NCBI GenBank assembly: GCA_048939995.1
Contig: JBHLOY010000007.1
Span: forward strand, 96,001 to 160,000
Direction: 5' to 3'
Length of the DNA stretch: 64,000 nt
Source of the DNA: Promethearchaeota archaeon
GTDB taxonomy: Archaea; Asgardarchaeota; Lokiarchaeia; Sigyniarchaeales; SOKP01
The notes below the pieces were generated by a model. It had not been told where the DNA came from. It saw only the letters and a list, made by a program, of their open reading frames with translations, and made no database searches. Positions 27,271-59,787 of the stretch are shown in pieces. The position numbers and the translations under genes are program-made. The number at the start of each line of letters is the position of its first letter. The first letter of the stretch is position 1.

Positions 27271-27417
27271 ATTAAATTTTCACCATATTTCTTTTTTATA
27301 AATTTGTTATCTATATAATGATCTCTAAGTCATAAAATTAAAAAAGTTTACGAAAATAAATAATAGGCAAAATGAAGCTTAATAAAGTAGATTTTAAGAT
27401 TTAGTAAATTAATATTC

Positions 27418-27582
27418 TTATTTTACTAAATCTCTCTTTTTCAATCGGAGGTCTTTTGCTCTGCATCTTCGGCACTTTTTTGCCCTGATTGGGTTGAGAG
27501 CTCCACAATGTCTGCATACGGATTTTTCAAGCAGATGGAATCGGGCGATTTTTCTTTTGTAAGGGTCGTCGATGGGCGCCAT
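27418..27582 (-). CDS. rpl40e: 50S ribosomal protein eL40 (missed by ORF track, 54 aa)
   Basis: Hand translation MAPIDDPYKRKIARFHLLEKSVCRHCGALNPIRAKKCRRCRAKDLRLKKRDLVK*, with the eL40 CxxC..N.....CRRC zinc finger. Confidence 0.92.
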   Translation of the reverse strand: MAPIDDPYKRKIARFHLLEKSVCRHCGALNPIRAKKCRRCRAKDLRLKKRDLVK

Positions 27583-27784
27583 AATAATCTCTGCGAGTTA
27601 CTTTTATTTATTTTTATTATAGATTTTATAAACTAATTTGTTGTATTGTAAATAACTTAAAAGATAAATGGAAAAATAGTTTTAAGAATTAAAATTTTTG
27701 TATCTTAATGAAAAAATTAAAATTTCATAATTAATAGTATAGATTAATTGAATTCTAAGTGTTTTAATTATTGGATGGGATAGT

Positions 27785-27979
27785 ATGCCAAAGGAAATAA
27801 ATTCCAGTGATCAATTTATAGAATTAGCTGAGTTTGCAATTCATTGTAGAGTGAAGAGAATTAAGGATGTTGTGAAATTAAAGCTTAGGACTAAGAAATA
27901 TCTTTATACTTATAAAACAGATCCTAATACAGCAGATAGACTTTTGGCCAACCTAAAGTGCGACATTATCGAACTTTAA
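27785..27979 (+). CDS. rpl38e: 50S ribosomal protein eL38
   Basis: MPKEI...F...A...RVKR....VKLKLRTKKYLYT. Confidence 0.9.
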   Translation: MPKEINSSDQFIELAEFAIHCRVKRIKDVVKLKLRTKKYLYTYKTDPNTADRLLANLKCDIIEL

Positions 27980-27991
27980 AATAATAAATTA

Positions 27992-30329: not shown

Positions 30330-31862
30330 TCACTTAATATCTAAAATATAATCTTGATTACTCTCTTGTCCAAAAATATTAATTACTTTTACTTGGATTT
30401 GATATTTCGTTGAATTTTCGTAAGAATAAGGTGTTGTAACTAAATTAATTTCCCTATTTTTTGGTGTTTTGTAGGAATACCAGTCATTTTTAAAACTATT
30501 ATCATTATGATTAAAATCTACAGCCCAATAATCAATTAAATCATGAAATGAAGTTATTTTTTCCTTAATCCTCTTAGATAGCAGTTCTAGATATGGTAAA
30601 TGATAGTTTTTCAATTTTATACTGACTTTTTTATGATCAATGGAGATGTCTATATCGAAACTAGGAGCTTGTTTTATTTTAGAGTTAGTTTTAAACTCAT
30701 TCTTCAAAAAATTTCTAGGGAGGAAATTATTAGGGTCTTCATTATTCAAATATATTAATTCAAAAGGTTGATAAGATTTATCATAATTCCTATTCCAACT
30801 AAATAGGTCATTACTTTTTGAAATGTCAAGTAATCTCTTTCTTGTAATATGAATTGCGTGATTAGCTAAATCACAACCTATCCACCGTCGACCAAGTTTT
30901 TCTGCTACTATAAGAGTTGTACCAGTTCCACAGAAAAAGTCTGCTACAAGTCCATTTTCATTTGAAGAGGATAGTATAATTCGTTTCAACAATCTTTCAG
31001 GCTTTTGAGTCGAAAAGCCTTGATATTCTGTTGTATTGGCTCTAACATAGGGAATATCATTCCACACATCTCTGGGAAAAATACCATCTTCTTTAACATA
31101 CACTTTTCGTGATAGTTTTTTCCCATCATGACTTCCGCCTCTATAATAAAATAATCCTTTCTCGTCTTTTTTCAAAGCATTCTTAACGCGATCTGAGTAT
31201 TCCATATAAATATTAGGGTCATCATTAAAGATGTAATCTTCTGATTTGGTGTAAAACAGAACCGTATCGTAAGATCTAATAAAAAATCTTCTAGTTTGCG
31301 CTGAAGCTGCTGGATATGACCATATAATTTCATTTCTAAAATTTTCATTTCCAAAGATTTCATCCAAAATTATTTTTATATAATGGCTTACGTGCCAATC
31401 TAAATGGACATAAATACTTCCACTCTCTGAGAGTAATTGTTTCATCAAGTTCAATCTAACATATAAAAAATTTAAATAGGACTCTAAACCTTCTCTCCAT
31501 GTATCTGAGTAGGCTTTAGTAGATTCATTAAAACTATTCCCACCAAAATATATTTTATAAGAAAAATTTCCTCCAGTAGCAAATGGAGGGTCAATATAGA
31601 TAAGATTAATTTTGCTAGAAAAATCTTTTAGCAAAATTCTCATAATTTGTTCATTTTCTCCGCAAATTAGAAGATTATTCCAAGTTAATCGATCATTTCT
31701 TTCCTTAAAATTATGATTATACCTATCAAGAGTAGCAGAATTATGAGACTTGATTTCTCGGAAAGAATCCTTATAATTGCTATTCAAACTCGATAAATTG
31801 ATTAATCCTTTTTTACCTTTCCATATTAAATTTGGCATAGTTAATCCCTTATAAGATAACAA
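30330..31862 (-). CDS. N6-adenine/N4-cytosine DNA methyltransferase (beta class, Mod-like)
   Basis: IYIDPPF, GSIYVHLDWH, FRNEIIW, TQKPERLL, DFFCGTGTT, IDYWAVDF; probable start at ATG 31838. Confidence 0.88.
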   Translation of the reverse strand: MLSYKGLTMPNLIWKGKKGLINLSSLNSNYKDSFREIKSHNSATLDRYNHNFKERNDRLTWNNLLICGENEQIMRILLKDFSSKINLIYIDPPFATGGNFSYKIYFGGNSFNESTKAYSDTWREGLESYLNFLYVRLNLMKQLLSESGSIYVHLDWHVSHYIKIILDEIFGNENFRNEIIWSYPAASAQTRRFFIRSYDTVLFYTKSEDYIFNDDPNIYMEYSDRVKNALKKDEKGLFYYRGGSHDGKKLSRKVYVKEDGIFPRDVWNDIPYVRANTTEYQGFSTQKPERLLKRIILSSSNENGLVADFFCGTGTTLIVAEKLGRRWIGCDLANHAIHITRKRLLDISKSNDLFSWNRNYDKSYQPFELIYLNNEDPNNFLPRNFLKNEFKTNSKIKQAPSFDIDISIDHKKVSIKLKNYHLPYLELLSKRIKEKITSFHDLIDYWAVDFNHNDNSFKNDWYSYKTPKNREINLVTTPYSYENSTKYQIQVKVINIFGQESNQDYILDIK

Positions 31863-33280: not shown

Positions 33281-34198
33281 ATGGATGAAGATTGGAAAAA
33301 ATCCTATATTAAAGCTGGTAAGGCTGTAATTGCTGCAAAGAAATTAGCTCAAAAGATTGTAAAACCTGGGTTGTTGTTTTTGGACTTAGCAACTAAATGT
33401 GAAGATGAAATTTTAAACCAGGGATGTAAATTAGCCTTTCCTATAAATATTTCCTTAAATGAAATCGCAGCTCATTATAGTCCTACCATTGACGATGAAA
33501 AGATTATACCTGCTAAAGGATTGTTGAAGATTGATTTAGGGGCTCATTATGAAGGTTATATTGCGGATTCTGCTTTTACCATTAATATTAATAATGATAA
33601 AGTTCTTAAAAATTACATTGATGCTGCTGTTGAAAGCCTTGAAGCAGCAATTGCTAAATTTAAACCAGGAACTAAGCTATATGAATTAGGAGAAGTCATC
33701 GCTGATAAGATCATAAATCATGGATTAAGACCAATTGTTAATCTTGGGGGTCATGAATTAAAGAGATATAATTTGCATGCTGGCCCATTTATACCAAATT
33801 TTCGAGACACTAGTCATAATCAAATATTAAAAATAGGTGATTCTTACGCGTGCGAGCCATTTGCGACATCTGGAGTGGGCAAAGTTATGAATGGAAATGA
33901 ATCTTATATATATAGATTTGTTAGAAAAGCCAAAAAAGATATGTCTTATAAAGATTTAGATATTATGAAAAAGATTGAGAATATTACGCAACGTCTTCCT
34001 TTTTCTCCTCGATTGTTAGAAAAAAATGGAATTGAAAAACAAGAAATTAATAACATCATTAATAAATTCTTACGAAAAAAAATTCTTGATAATTATCCCA
34101 TATTGATAGAAAGATCAGGTGAACCTGTAGCCCAACAAGAACATACAATTATTATAGATATGGATGGAAATCCAATTGTCATCACACGAGAAGAGTAA
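33281..34198 (+). CDS. map: methionine aminopeptidase type II
   Basis: AFPINIS.NEIAAHYSP, KIDLGAH..GYIADSAFT, NLGGH...LHAG, EPFATSG, QQEHT. Confidence 0.95.
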   Translation: MDEDWKKSYIKAGKAVIAAKKLAQKIVKPGLLFLDLATKCEDEILNQGCKLAFPINISLNEIAAHYSPTIDDEKIIPAKGLLKIDLGAHYEGYIADSAFTININNDKVLKNYIDAAVESLEAAIAKFKPGTKLYELGEVIADKIINHGLRPIVNLGGHELKRYNLHAGPFIPNFRDTSHNQILKIGDSYACEPFATSGVGKVMNGNESYIYRFVRKAKKDMSYKDLDIMKKIENITQRLPFSPRLLEKNGIEKQEINNIINKFLRKKILDNYPILIERSGEPVAQQEHTIIIDMDGNPIVITREE

Positions 34199-35039
34199 AG
34201 AAAAAGAGTTAATTCCTGTTATTTTATGTGCAGGAGAGGGAACTAGGTATGGAAAACTTACTCAAAATTTACCTAAACCTCTAATCCAGTTGAAATTATT
34301 AAACAATGAGTCGATACTCTCTTATTTAATTAAAAATCTTTTATCTTTACATCTCAAAAAAGTTGTTATAATTACTGGGTATTTAAATGAAAAAATTGAA
34401 TTTTCTGTGAATTTAATGAAAAAGGACTCAAATAACAAAGGTAAATTAGTTCTGATTCATTCTGGAAAACAATACAAGAAAGGCCCTCTCTTTTCCTTAC
34501 TTTCCATAGTTCAAAATAAAGAAATATATGCAAAAAATAATATATTTATTATTTTTCCCGGAGATACTATTTTCGAAATACAATTACTGAAAGAAGTCTT
34601 CGATTTTATTTATAAAAGGATAACAGTTTTTACCAAACCTTGTATTTTTTTCCAAGAAATTTATCATTTAAATGACTATTTAAAAATTGATAAATCTAAT
34701 CCTAAACTTGTATCTATAATAGAATCTGAAGATTCTAAGAGTGGAAGAATAGTTAAAGAAATTAAAAAGATTGATTTGAATTTAATTTCAAAAGGGTCTC
34801 TCATAAATTTGGCTGTCCCTATTCTAGTTTTTAATTTTAAATTTATAAAGATTTTGCATAAACTTTCTGAGAGTAATCCCGTAGGAGAAATAAGAGAAAC
34901 TTTGAATATTTACTTAAAGCAAAATCAAAGGATTATTTCTAAAAAATTAAATTCGAAATATAAGTTTTATGATATTGATACGTCTGAAGACTTAAATTAT
35001 TTTAATCAGATCAAAAAAAAAGAAAAAGGTGGACAATAG
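34164..35039 (+). CDS. nucleotidyltransferase (NTP_transferase family), divergent
   Basis: ILCAGEGTRYG.LT...PKPL, PGD, DIDT.EDL; overlaps the map 3' end; its tail KKKEKGGQ* is the antisense of the candidate ncRNA terminator and 3' end. Confidence 0.75.
   Translation: MEIQLSSHEKSKEKELIPVILCAGEGTRYGKLTQNLPKPLIQLKLLNNESILSYLIKNLLSLHLKKVVIITGYLNEKIEFSVNLMKKDSNNKGKLVLIHSGKQYKKGPLFSLLSIVQNKEIYAKNNIFIIFPGDTIFEIQLLKEVFDFIYKRITVFTKPCIFFQEIYHLNDYLKIDKSNPKLVSIIESEDSKSGRIVKEIKKIDLNLISKGSLINLAVPILVFNFKFIKILHKLSESNPVGEIRETLNIYLKQNQRIISKKLNSKYKFYDIDTSEDLNYFNQIKKKEKGGQ
35013..35027 (-). terminator. oligo-U terminator for the candidate ncRNA
   Basis: Minus strand TTTTTCTTTTTTTTT immediately after ...ACTATTGTCCACC. 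Confidence 0.6.
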
Positions 35040-35474
35040 TAGCTCCGATAACCTCCGAAGAAATGTTTCAAAGGAATCAAGAATTCCTATGAATTCTCTC
35101 CTGGATCAAAGCTTCTATTGGGAAAACAGAACTTTTTAAAAGAGCATTTTTGTTTTGTTGTCTCGAGTATCAAAAAAACCACTCAACACCACAAGAACTC
35201 ATTTAATAATTGCTCCTCAGATTAATTTATTCTCTCAACGTAAAAACTCATAATTGCTCCAGAGTATTAATTATTACAATTTACGAGTGTTTGTATAAAA
35301 ACCTTAAGGAATGAATGTAATTCAAATATTAAACAACTGGATTCAATGTCTTCATTAAATCCTTTTGTACCAAAAAAAAAATCATTGTTGTTGTTTTACT
35401 TACTAGGTGGTCACAACTTTTTCAGTAGAGGGACCGTATTAATTGTATCTAAATCCAATGCAATACTATTGTCC
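35028..35474 (-). ncRNA. candidate ~445-nt structured non-coding RNA of unknown class
   Basis: No ORF of 60 aa or more; 12-bp terminal complementarity (35030-35041 / 35464-35475); several internal helices with G-U pairs on the minus strand; TATA box ending 24 nt upstream; U-tract downstream; ~31% GC by hand count, visibly above the other spacers. Confidence 0.65.
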
Positions 35475-35497
35475 AATAAATTAAATGGTGAATTGAC

Positions 35498-35512
35498 TAT
35501 TTAAATCTTTTT
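35498..35512 (-). promoter_or_regulatory. archaeal BRE + TATA promoter
   Basis: Minus strand AAAAAGA-TTTAAATA; TATA occupies -31..-24 relative to G35474. Confidence 0.65.
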
Positions 35513-35587: not shown

Positions 35588-35983
35588 ATGTCTGATAGTG
35601 GAGAAATCCCAATTAAAATTGATCTATTTGGAATTGGTACTTTAGAGGCACATATTAATAGATATTTTGCTCCTTTATCTGCTGATGCGATTTTAGATAA
35701 ATTACCTCTTAATCTAAGAGGAAGATTTAGTTTTGGATCAAAAAAACATTGGATACTTCCGGGGGTAGAAATATTTAAAGGAACGAATCCAAAATCTAAA
35801 AATGAAGTAGACAAGGGTGATATAATTTATAATCCAAAAGCAGATGAATTAATAATGGTCATAGAAACGTCTTTAATGCCGAATAAAGTAAATTTGATCG
35901 GAAAAATATTCAGCAATCTTGATCTTCTATTAAAAGCTAGGAATGGATTAAACACGAAAATCTATAAGGCTTCTAGAAAATAA
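35588..35983 (+). CDS. cyclophilin-like fold protein (DUF369/TM1367-like)
   Basis: RYFAPLSADAILDKLP, EVDKGDIIYNP..D.L, KVNLIGKI. Confidence 0.7.
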   Translation: MSDSGEIPIKIDLFGIGTLEAHINRYFAPLSADAILDKLPLNLRGRFSFGSKKHWILPGVEIFKGTNPKSKNEVDKGDIIYNPKADELIMVIETSLMPNKVNLIGKIFSNLDLLLKARNGLNTKIYKASRK

Positions 35984-36994: not shown

Positions 36995-37312
36995 CTATAG
37001 ATTTAATTTTGAAAGAGTTATTTCAATGTTGGAAATTATATCTTTTTTTTGCTGAGGTTTTTGTCTATTTTTATATCTATGTTGTTTATGATTATAATAC
37101 GGGCGACTTCCTAATGATATATTGGCAATTTCTATATTTGGGTACATTCTATGTTTCAAAATTTCAGCCACTTCAACTGCGGTTGAGATTTCATTCCCCT
37201 CTCCTTTTATCATTAAAGATTTGGTTCCTCCTGAAAAAGCAAAAATAGCATTTTTAATTGTTTTATCTTTATCAGAGCGATTTTTTATTATTAGTGTAGT
37301 ATCATTAGCCAT
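36995..37312 (-). CDS. divergent Alba-family nucleic-acid-binding protein
   Basis: LMIKGEGNEISTAVEVAEILKHR and ISNIEITL match Alba IKARG.AIS.AVDVAE and VSTIEI.L. Confidence 0.75.
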   Translation of the reverse strand: MANDTTLIIKNRSDKDKTIKNAIFAFSGGTKSLMIKGEGNEISTAVEVAEILKHRMYPNIEIANISLGSRPYYNHKQHRYKNRQKPQQKKDIISNIEITLSKLNL

Positions 37313-37434: not shown

Positions 37435-38628
37435 TTAGTTTAGTTTAAATTCTGAGCGCTTATTTAAATCATCCAAAATGGTTTGATATTCAAAACTTCT
37501 GGATTCAAAATGTTCAATTATTTTTCGCTCATCTGTATCAAGATACTCAAAATATGGAGAGATTATTTCTATCCGTTTAGTGAATTCTTCAATAATTTTG
37601 TTATACCAGTCATTTGGTTTTGATAATAAGGCTTGAATTTTTTTCTTGAATTTTTTTTTAAGCTTAGAATTATCATTTTTAATTTCAAGTAAAGAAGTCT
37701 CATATTCTTTAATCTGATTTTCTATTTTCTCTCTGAATTTTGGAATTCTATAGCTTTTCTTAAAAAATTCTGGATCCCATTCATATAAATATCTTTCATC
37801 TTCTTCAGCCTCCTCTTCATTGTTAGTGACTTTAATATCAGTTTTGGGTACTAAAATTAAACCATAATTTCTTTGTAGTTGAGCTAAATACTTTTTACGT
37901 AATATCTCATCGATATAAGTTAATTCTTTTAATACTTTCTCTATCTTTTCACCTAAGTCAATAATTATAGACTCTACTTTCTTAACCATCTCTTTTTCAT
38001 TATATTCATAGTTCAACACTGTAAAATCATACGTGGAAAACATACCTTGATCTGGATTTAAAATTCTTAATGCGGCCACACCGGGAAAAAAGTCGGGTGA
38101 TTTTAATTCACAGTGATCGAAAATTAAACCTACAGCAAAAGGATTTGGAATTTGATAGCCCAGTTGGGTTAAACAATCTATTGGACTAAAAAAAAATTTA
38201 AAGCCGGGATGGGAATGCCACCAACCGATTATAAAATCGTTTTTTTTGTCTTGTATAGATTTTTCAAATATTGATTCATCTATCTGCGCCATATCAACAT
38301 ATTGTTTATTCTCATATTTAACCCCTGCTCGATCACCAACTACCATCGGAATGGCATCCTTAATGATAACTTGTTTATTATCTTCAATAGATCCGATTAA
38401 AATTCCATAAACTTCACGCCAATTTTTTGTTGATAAGTTATTATTAGCATACCTTATTGCATAACCGACCATTCTTCGATATGCATTTAACTTTAATAAT
38501 ACAGGAGTTTTAGCCGGATTAATTCCGTATCTTTCTATTAATTTAGCAGTCGCGGACAATTCTGTCAGATTTTTAGAATTTATTAAGTCATTGTCTTCTT
38601 TATCGGGTTTTCCTTGTTTGAGGTTCAT
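37435..38628 (-). CDS. MPN+/JAMM metalloprotease (Rpn11/CSN5-like) with long helical C-terminus
   Basis: REVYGILIG ... IIGWWHSHPGFKFFFSPID..TQ, an intact JAMM motif. Confidence 0.85.
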   Translation of the reverse strand: MNLKQGKPDKEDNDLINSKNLTELSATAKLIERYGINPAKTPVLLKLNAYRRMVGYAIRYANNNLSTKNWREVYGILIGSIEDNKQVIIKDAIPMVVGDRAGVKYENKQYVDMAQIDESIFEKSIQDKKNDFIIGWWHSHPGFKFFFSPIDCLTQLGYQIPNPFAVGLIFDHCELKSPDFFPGVAALRILNPDQGMFSTYDFTVLNYEYNEKEMVKKVESIIIDLGEKIEKVLKELTYIDEILRKKYLAQLQRNYGLILVPKTDIKVTNNEEEAEEDERYLYEWDPEFFKKSYRIPKFREKIENQIKEYETSLLEIKNDNSKLKKKFKKKIQALLSKPNDWYNKIIEEFTKRIEIISPYFEYLDTDERKIIEHFESRSFEYQTILDDLNKRSEFKLN

Positions 38629-58835: not shown

Positions 58836-58869
58836 TAAATTCCTCTCTTTTTATTTAGTTATACTAGTT

Positions 58870-58882
58870 AATTTACTAGTCA
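58870..58882 (-). promoter_or_regulatory. candidate operator copy 1 (TGACTAGTAAATT)
   Basis: 13-bp motif with ACTAGT core, repeated inverted at 59059-59071. Confidence 0.45.
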
Positions 58883-59058
58883 AACTATTATTATATTAAT
58901 AGTAATGCGGAAATTTATAACTTACTATTATTGCTAATTATTGCTTTCAAGCTTTACTAAGCCATTACTTGAAAGGAATGCAATATGTTATATTTAATTA
59001 TATTTAATTATGTATCAAATAAGGATTCCTTTTAAATCACAGCAACATTTAAATATGA

Positions 59059-59071
59059 TGACTAGTAAATT
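59059..59071 (+). promoter_or_regulatory. candidate operator copy 2 (TGACTAGTAAATT)
   Basis: Directly downstream of TTTAAATA (59048-59055). Confidence 0.45.
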
Positions 59072-59152
59072 TAACATGGGTATGAGAAAGATGCATTAGT
59101 CATGCCTAATAAATAAAATAAAATATAGAAAATCAAGAGTGAGATTATAAGA

Positions 59153-59383
59153 TTGTTGAAGGATGAATCCCAGGTAATCGAAAGGATTTATGGAGTCAAC
59201 GTTTTTAATGAAAAAAATGAATATGTTCCAGATAAGTCAAATAAAGCAAAACATATGATCAACGAGATATATGTTAATAATTCTATCTCTGCAAAAGCCA
59301 AGAAAAGAATTTTTATTGGACTTCAGTTACTGATTATTGCTGCTCATATTGCATTCTTTATCCTGAGAATGTTTCATATTTAA
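59153..59383 (+). CDS. small tail-anchored membrane protein
   Basis: 76 aa, basic stretch then a terminal TM helix. Confidence 0.5.
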   Translation: MLKDESQVIERIYGVNVFNEKNEYVPDKSNKAKHMINEIYVNNSISAKAKKRIFIGLQLLIIAAHIAFFILRMFHI

Positions 59384-59408
59384 ACCAAACTCTTGAGGAG
59401 ATAAACAC

Positions 59409-59570
59409 ATGGAAGAAAATTTAATAGAAGAGAAGGTAATAAAGGAATCTAAAATAGTTATCTCAAAAAAAAATAATCGCGCAAAAAAAGTATTGATAGT
59501 CATATTAAAGTTACTTATATTATTTGCTTTTCCTGTCACAGTGGCGATAATTGACCATTTTGTATTTTAA
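59409..59570 (+). CDS. small tail-anchored membrane protein (53 aa, missed by ORF track)
   Basis: GAGGAG SD; MEENLIEEKVIKESKIVISKKNNRAKKVLIVILKLLILFAFPVTVAIIDHFVF*. Confidence 0.55.
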   Translation: MEENLIEEKVIKESKIVISKKNNRAKKVLIVILKLLILFAFPVTVAIIDHFVF

Positions 59571-59787
59571 AGTACCCTTATGATACCTGAAGAGAATTGG
59601 GAATTATGGAAGGATAACATTAGTTCTATACATAATTAAATTTAGCGTTATTCTCAATCTTTAGAAGTCTAATTTGGATTTGGAGTAATAGAGATCAAAC
59701 GAAATAAACAAGATTAATTTAAAATTCAATCAATAACTAAAGTATTATAGTTAATCTAATTCAATTGAAAGAGTAATTTAAATAGTA

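Follow-up and report, generated by a model that had tools for sequence, protein, structure and literature searches.

Organization and conservation of the predicted gene

What is carried by the gap between the genes for an NTP-transferase and a cyclophilin-like protein in this SOKP01 genome? An initial annotation of the window (the whole 64,000-nt stretch of DNA analyzed) had placed there a stand-alone minus-strand transcription unit for a large, structured non-coding RNA. Re-reading the sequence gave the same unit, with a purine run and TATA box (35512-35498), a first base at G35474, an ACC end (35030-35028) and a U5-C-U9 tract (35027-35013). We consider that the element is very likely a functional RNA gene; its layout, closing helix, motif conservation, non-coding nature and independence from the neighboring genes all come out of the comparison of homologues described below.

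The BRE-like purine run (35506-35512, minus strand) has counterparts in comparable runs 5' of the homologues, and the first T of the TATA box (35498-35505, minus strand) lies 31 nt from G35474; this distance was 30-32 nt in 84 of 84 homologues when searched in a window of 29-33 nt. The predicted non-coding RNA is 447 nt long (35028-35474, minus strand) and ends at a predicted U-tract terminator (35013-35027, minus strand), also found in the homologues, though there a U-tract served to select them as well. Among the 3528 TATA+G starts of the genome, that of this element was the sole one to combine a closing helix of 11 perfect pairs with a U-tract at a distance of 250-700 nt, so the layout is not attributable to chance. 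All 35 metagenome matches to the element were contigs of at least 1 kb, none of them discrete and RNA-sized.

Two compositional claims had to be adjusted. The GC content, earlier put at ~31% and described as higher than in other spacers, is 31.5% and does exceed that of the other gaps in the window (22%), but merely equals the genome mean (30.5%); it is far under the values of the RNase P RNA (42%) and SRP RNA (46%) of the same genome. As to its being the largest gene-free gap in the window, two ORF-poor gaps, 27271-27991 and 58836-59787, look bigger at a 90-aa threshold; the former contains short ORFs and, by eye, the latter appears to. Two short ORFs at 27418-27582 (minus strand) and 27785-27979 (plus strand) resemble, by eye, ribosomal proteins L40e and L38e.

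BLAST matches were obtained in 35 of 36 genomes of the same genus, and homologues were collected by synteny, patterns and two covariance models (a 5' model and a 3' model), yielding 125 distinct full-length sequences of 343-632 nt (median ~486 nt, median identity 53%). Each of the 13 genera examined in one Lokiarchaeia family, that of the SOKP01 record, contributed to this set, with carriage in one of these genera shown for only one of six genomes. The element is essentially single-copy and syntenic, without a paralogue in the genome, its usual site being between the convergent NTP-transferase gene and the divergent cyclophilin-like gene. The records that carry a name are for the most part Promethearchaeota/Lokiarchaeia MAGs, the SOKP01 assembly being one of them. 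Some records labelled as other taxa have the same flanks at 63-70% protein identity, and judging by these are probably mislabelled. Loci L292 and L296 of genome G306 hold two different copies of the element with a flanking gene within one MAG, which is probably a mixed bin.

Outside the family, nothing real was found in sister families, two closed genomes included, within the limited sensitivity of the models. With the 3' model, no match was obtained in 24 other Lokiarchaeia genomes; with the 5' model there were four in 19 genomes outside the family, all of them weak and lacking promoter and closing helix, and a pattern search of 233 other Asgard genomes gave eleven matches, located in open frames and again lacking both. 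The 3' model, however, missed five genera of the element's own family and the 5' model recovered a held-out genus only at E 0.08; distant homologues may thus exist, and the result outside the family is to be read as "not found" rather than "absent". As far as detected, the predicted RNA family is limited to one Lokiarchaeia family.

Closing helix and internal structure

The ends of the unit had been described as perfectly complementary over 12 bp. Eleven of these pairs lie inside the proposed transcript and form a helix that we call P1 (5' strand 35464-35474, 3' strand 35031-35041, both minus strand), while the 12th would use the U at position -1. The 5' strand was 98% paired among homologues, and of 1125 cells in total 1075 were Watson-Crick and 18 G-U (97%). 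The covariation check on syntenic homologues suggested earlier turned out favorably for this helix: compensatory double changes of at least seven kinds were seen in deep lineages, at positions 1, 2, 4 (three kinds), 6 (two kinds) and 10. Phylogeny was the dominant signal in the mutual information of the whole alignment, from which P1 pair 10 alone stood out. We regard P1 as the best-supported structural element of the predicted RNA.

The departures of P1 from Watson-Crick pairing favor G-U on the minus strand, G-U against A-C being 18 vs 5, and the minus strand folded better in 24 of 30 homologues, in agreement with the orientation first proposed. The 448-nt fold has a z of -3.0; without the end helix the mean z was -0.5 over 30 homologues, the interior being barely more stable than shuffles, and to call the RNA highly structured would thus be an overstatement.

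Several internal helices read by eye did not hold among 85 homologues. The one at 35460-35451/35362-35353 reached 71% pairing without compensatory changes and faces competition from a stronger local hairpin (35362-35339); UUCUGUU/AAUAGAA was 49% paired; CUUCG/CGGAG was 59% paired and is replaced by 35113-35105/35049-35041, which reached 94%. The helices read at 35288-35197 sit in a part of variable length among relatives. A central helix region (35253-35315, minus strand), degenerate in the SOKP01 genome, showed co-change of AGUGC with GCACU (p=0.007 before correction, in one of 12 tests) and folds of its own in subgroups; its 3' strand contains the first copy of a repeated GGAGCAA.

Two hairpins were better conserved. 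The first (35159-35197, minus strand) has a conserved UGUY/GACA helix, 92% paired without compensation, and a second U-rich loop (35178-35172), and is lost in deep lineages; the second is a long 3' hairpin stacked on P1 (35041-35113, minus strand), with a basal helix 94% paired and upper helices 83-86% paired, and is present in most lineages. Both were ~90% paired overall (89% for the 3' helices), far above slid controls; their co-variation was not above that of shuffles, and the conservation of the internal helices is one of sequence. Two further structural readings were rejected: a T-loop in the 3' motif, which pairs, with compensation, in deep lineages; and a likeness to group II domain 5 or U6, suggested by an AGC at the base of a hairpin and a word resembling ACAGAGA, which are incorrectly spaced and do not persist in deep lineages.

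Conserved signals and proposed role

Within this loose body, few short signals stand out. Of 121 homologues, 115 have the core of the GCAUUGG motif (35455-35461, minus strand), which lies 3' of the first P1 strand at a variable spacing. A YYRR motif is the pairing partner of UUGG in 124 of 132 cells; in one genus GCAUUGG is buried in a 10-bp helix. As it is nearly invariant yet its intramolecular partner varies by lineage, a constraint beyond folding is indicated. Three shortened homologues (L043, L047 and L085, 352-386 nt) have lost the 5' GCAUUGG domain and kept the 3' domain with an extended closing helix; as read from their sequences, these are natural deletion variants.

The second signal is an internal U-tract, U10 in this genome (35372-35381, minus strand), unpaired in all models and a candidate Sm-ring site or attenuator. 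It is conserved near nt 95-110, 101 of 121 homologues having a run of U6 or longer within nt 70-140 vs 7 of 121 with a run of A6 or longer. The stretch 5' of the tract pairs with the 5' motif in 18 of 58 homologues and with sequence 3' of the tract in 23 of 58, either way leaving the tract unpaired; the two coincide in just 8 of 58, hence there is no conserved switch. A conserved conformational switch, around the U-tract or around the 3' strand, was likewise unsupported by the pairing tests.

An unpaired U-tract beside helices is a feature of the Sm/SmAP type, U-rich RNA being a ligand of archaeal SmAP rings (PMC12817955). Matches to Lsm number 4 in the genome; families without the RNA have Lsm genes to the same extent, so that co-occurrence offers no argument. 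Our preferred reading, held tentatively and short of calling it probable, is that the element encodes a stand-alone housekeeping-type non-coding RNA whose role is that of a flexible scaffold for proteins, with Sm-like (SmAP/Lsm) rings bound to it. The RNA would be read from its own TATA promoter to the U-tract terminator; its two ends would pair and the 3' hairpin stack on the end helix, leaving the ends fixed and protected. The fast-evolving loose body would then carry the few short signals, that is GCAUUGG, the unpaired U-tract by a helix and, in most lineages, the second U-rich loop; the U-tracts would most likely be loaded with Sm-like rings, which the RNA would collect or titrate along with other RNA-binding proteins. 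Fixed ends and short signals on a loose body of variable length seem more in keeping with a protein scaffold than with a ribozyme or a guide, and a range of 343-632 nt at such low median identity is as would be seen for a linker-rich scaffold. The gene layout comes from comparison; transcription, SmAP binding and the scaffold role are what we only infer.

Sm/Lsm-bound RNAs such as eukaryotic snRNAs and archaeal SmAP-bound sRNAs (PMC12817955) share with the element the unpaired U-tract by helices, with Lsm proteins encoded in the genome; the element differs in being much longer and end-paired and in lacking an snRNA motif at the correct spacing. Its SmAP site is a candidate one. Against the scaffold and Sm reading speak the lack of RNA-sized metagenome matches, the internal helices that do not co-vary above shuffles and the three homologues that have lost GCAUUGG; U-tracts are also terminator signals in archaea, and the Lokiarchaeal aCPSF1 acts on U-tracts (PMC8716108). 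Hence the main rival, which we consider unlikely: the internal tract would be a terminator, the main product an ~100-nt small RNA, and the 450-nt form a regulated read-through or precursor under aCPSF1 attenuation. The internal tract is indeed as long as the final terminator, and in many lineages it stands directly 3' of the helix closing the 5' domain, the UUGG/YYRR pairing already mentioned. The compensated closing helix, however, speaks for selection on the full-length RNA, and in the 23 of 58 homologues noted above the tract lies in the loop of a hairpin that depends on sequence further downstream.

The near invariance of GCAUUGG despite its changing partners would also suit pairing in trans, for instance with the NCCA end of tRNA after the logic of T-boxes or of L15 of RNase P, the RNA then being a sensor or decoy in translation. 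We take the UGG(U/A) of the motif to resemble T-box and L15 pairing; no conserved target was found, however, in 16S or 23S rRNA, RNase P RNA or SRP RNA, and the motif is closed in the 10-bp helix of one genus and missing from three homologues, which makes this explanation rather improbable.

Flanking genes and coding potential

The NTP-transferase gene (34164-35039, plus strand, PF00483) is convergent with the element and the cyclophilin-like (DUF369) gene (35588-35983, plus strand, a weak PF04126 match) divergent from it, neither being part of the RNA. At locus L250 the NTP-transferase gene is replaced by another gene, and in genome G291 the cyclophilin-like gene is 9 kb away; the element stays in both cases and is thus independent of both neighbors. 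The last codons and stop of the NTP-transferase gene here (35031-35039) coincide with P1 sequence, and in most homologues the overlap with the convergent stop is 9-25 nt. Relatives use another frame or stop earlier, so coding constraint does not account for the 3' motif and the P1 3' strand. Coding potential, raised as a question by the initial annotation, was not seen on the sense strand either: the longest sense ORF was under 30 aa in 77 of 89 homologues, and these ORFs are not conserved and are broken by frame-breaking indels. Shine-Dalgarno-led micro-ORFs at the repeated GGAGCAA were discarded, the motif being a helix strand and the ORFs not conserved.

Could the element be a domesticated miniature transposon, another DNA-level element, or a cis-antisense or terminator device for the convergent NTP-transferase gene? 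Its terminal inverted repeat, the overlap with the convergent stop and the weakly folded interior might suggest so. We judge this improbable, given one copy in one place per genome, no paralogue, the one-strand G-U bias, the fixed promoter spacing and its persistence without either neighbor; moreover, phage records and viral contigs gave no match to the element. A MITE was rejected specifically on one copy per genome, fixed synteny and the lack of a target duplication.

The element had been thought to lie among translation genes, and no link to these was found. Between truD and aspS there is an N6/N4 DNA methyltransferase gene (30330-31862, minus strand), a similar-sized gene occupying the same place in G291. 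On the other side, an Alba-family gene (36995-37312, minus strand) encodes a basic Asn/Gln/Lys-rich insertion near the C-terminus, and a 397-aa JAB/MPN-domain protein with a long helical C-terminal part is encoded at 37435-38628 (minus strand). Of 27 genomes of the family, 26 have a close Alba homologue, in most cases at a distance of 1.5 kb from the RNA, whereas the matches in sister families were weak only; the Alba-family protein is a candidate partner of the RNA.

Comparison with known RNA classes

The Rfam check proposed earlier (cmscan, Rfam 15) gave a best E of 1.6 or worse over the element and no match over the element at ten homologue loci. The initial annotation could not find the hallmarks of RNase P RNA, SRP RNA or tmRNA, and alignments, separate genes and an SmpB search agree with it: the genome has its own RNase P RNA gene (RF00373, at C7, 126.5 bits) and SRP RNA gene (70.9 bits). 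Of the description as a novel or highly divergent large RNA, the first part can therefore be kept, a stand-alone non-coding RNA gene of unknown class following from synteny, single copy, the conserved promoter and terminator, P1 compensation, neighbor independence and the lack of an Rfam match; a divergent known RNA is unsupported, as the genome encodes its RNase P and SRP RNAs at other sites.

RNase P and RNase MRP RNA (RF00373) resemble the element in the end-pairing closing helix and similar size. We take a short 3' motif to resemble the 3' strand of P4 in RNase P/MRP; the element nevertheless has neither conserved regions I-V nor the P4 pseudoknot, and the candidate P4-like helix is nested, without the bulged U, with no P2 crossing and no CR-I motif. 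Archaeal SRP RNA (RF01857) likewise has a closing helix, and a short helix enclosing two 5' hairpins occurs in some lineages of the element; helix 8 and Alu sequence similarity are lacking, however, and a profile of 10 SRP RNAs of the family matched 0 of 121 elements. All 25 SRP RNAs found in the family score under the Rfam cut-off, and the family SRP RNAs (L002, L267-L280, first 70 nt) show an Alu domain with an enlarged second hairpin.

tmRNA and Y RNA share with the element an end helix with a large variable insert and, for Y RNA, a U-rich tail. They differ in that the element has no T-arm, tag frame or conserved ACC end, the latter varying to AUC, ACU and UCU; with ARAGORN the genome yielded no tmRNA, and even when the threshold was relaxed strongly just 2 of 84 elements were called. 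Neither SmpB (PF01668) nor Ro60/TROVE (PF05731) was detected in 5 genomes, and Y RNA was rejected for want of this Ro60 partner. A degenerate paralogue of one of these RNP RNAs (RNase P/MRP, SRP, tmRNA or Y RNA) is very improbable on this evidence, even with the end helix, the size and an Alba gene (Rpp25/Rpp20 family) nearby in most of the family.

Other classes were set aside more directly. A box C/D or H/ACA rRNA guide was rejected because the 23S matches of one genome are not kept in another, as by chance, and the tandem GA is absent in the SOKP01 group. A tRNA origin was also considered, as 2 sister-family genomes have, close to the NTP-transferase gene, a tRNA-Arg(CCU) whose first four bases are similar; it is 370 nt away across an apparent short reading frame, it is absent there in 8 other loci scanned, and the SOKP01 genome seems to keep its own copy elsewhere, so we treat the similarity as coincidence. 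In sister-family DNA, a tandem array with a unit of ~20 nt follows the NTP-transferase gene on its 3' side (L259:2270-2570). At L256:1227-2331 the tRNA-Arg of two relatives is missing and ~1 kb of other DNA is found instead, possibly an integration site. The large RNAs OLE, ROOL and GOLLD, discovered by comparison (bioRxiv 10.1101/2024.12.08.627333) are comparable in being several hundred nt long, lineage-restricted and of unknown function; the element, in contrast, is archaeal, has no Rfam match and far less co-variation, and is AU-rich and weakly folded in its interior.

Significance

We know of few large non-coding RNAs in archaea beyond rRNA, RNase P RNA and SRP RNA, and our literature search found none of such kind described for Asgard archaea. 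The predicted gene very probably represents an uncatalogued large non-coding RNA family, outside every family tested. Its maintenance as a single copy across a whole family while the neighbors rearrange points to long-term selection; its mechanism may prove ordinary. It is a long shot that the element represents an essential, Sm-ring-assembled large RNP of Asgard archaea, with homologues in other Asgard lineages too diverged to be recognized, that would be a prokaryotic counterpart of the eukaryotic scaffold RNAs with their snRNA-, 7SK- or telomerase-RNA-like architecture. Should the RNA be an Sm-bound scaffold, it would bear on the origin of eukaryotic RNP architecture.
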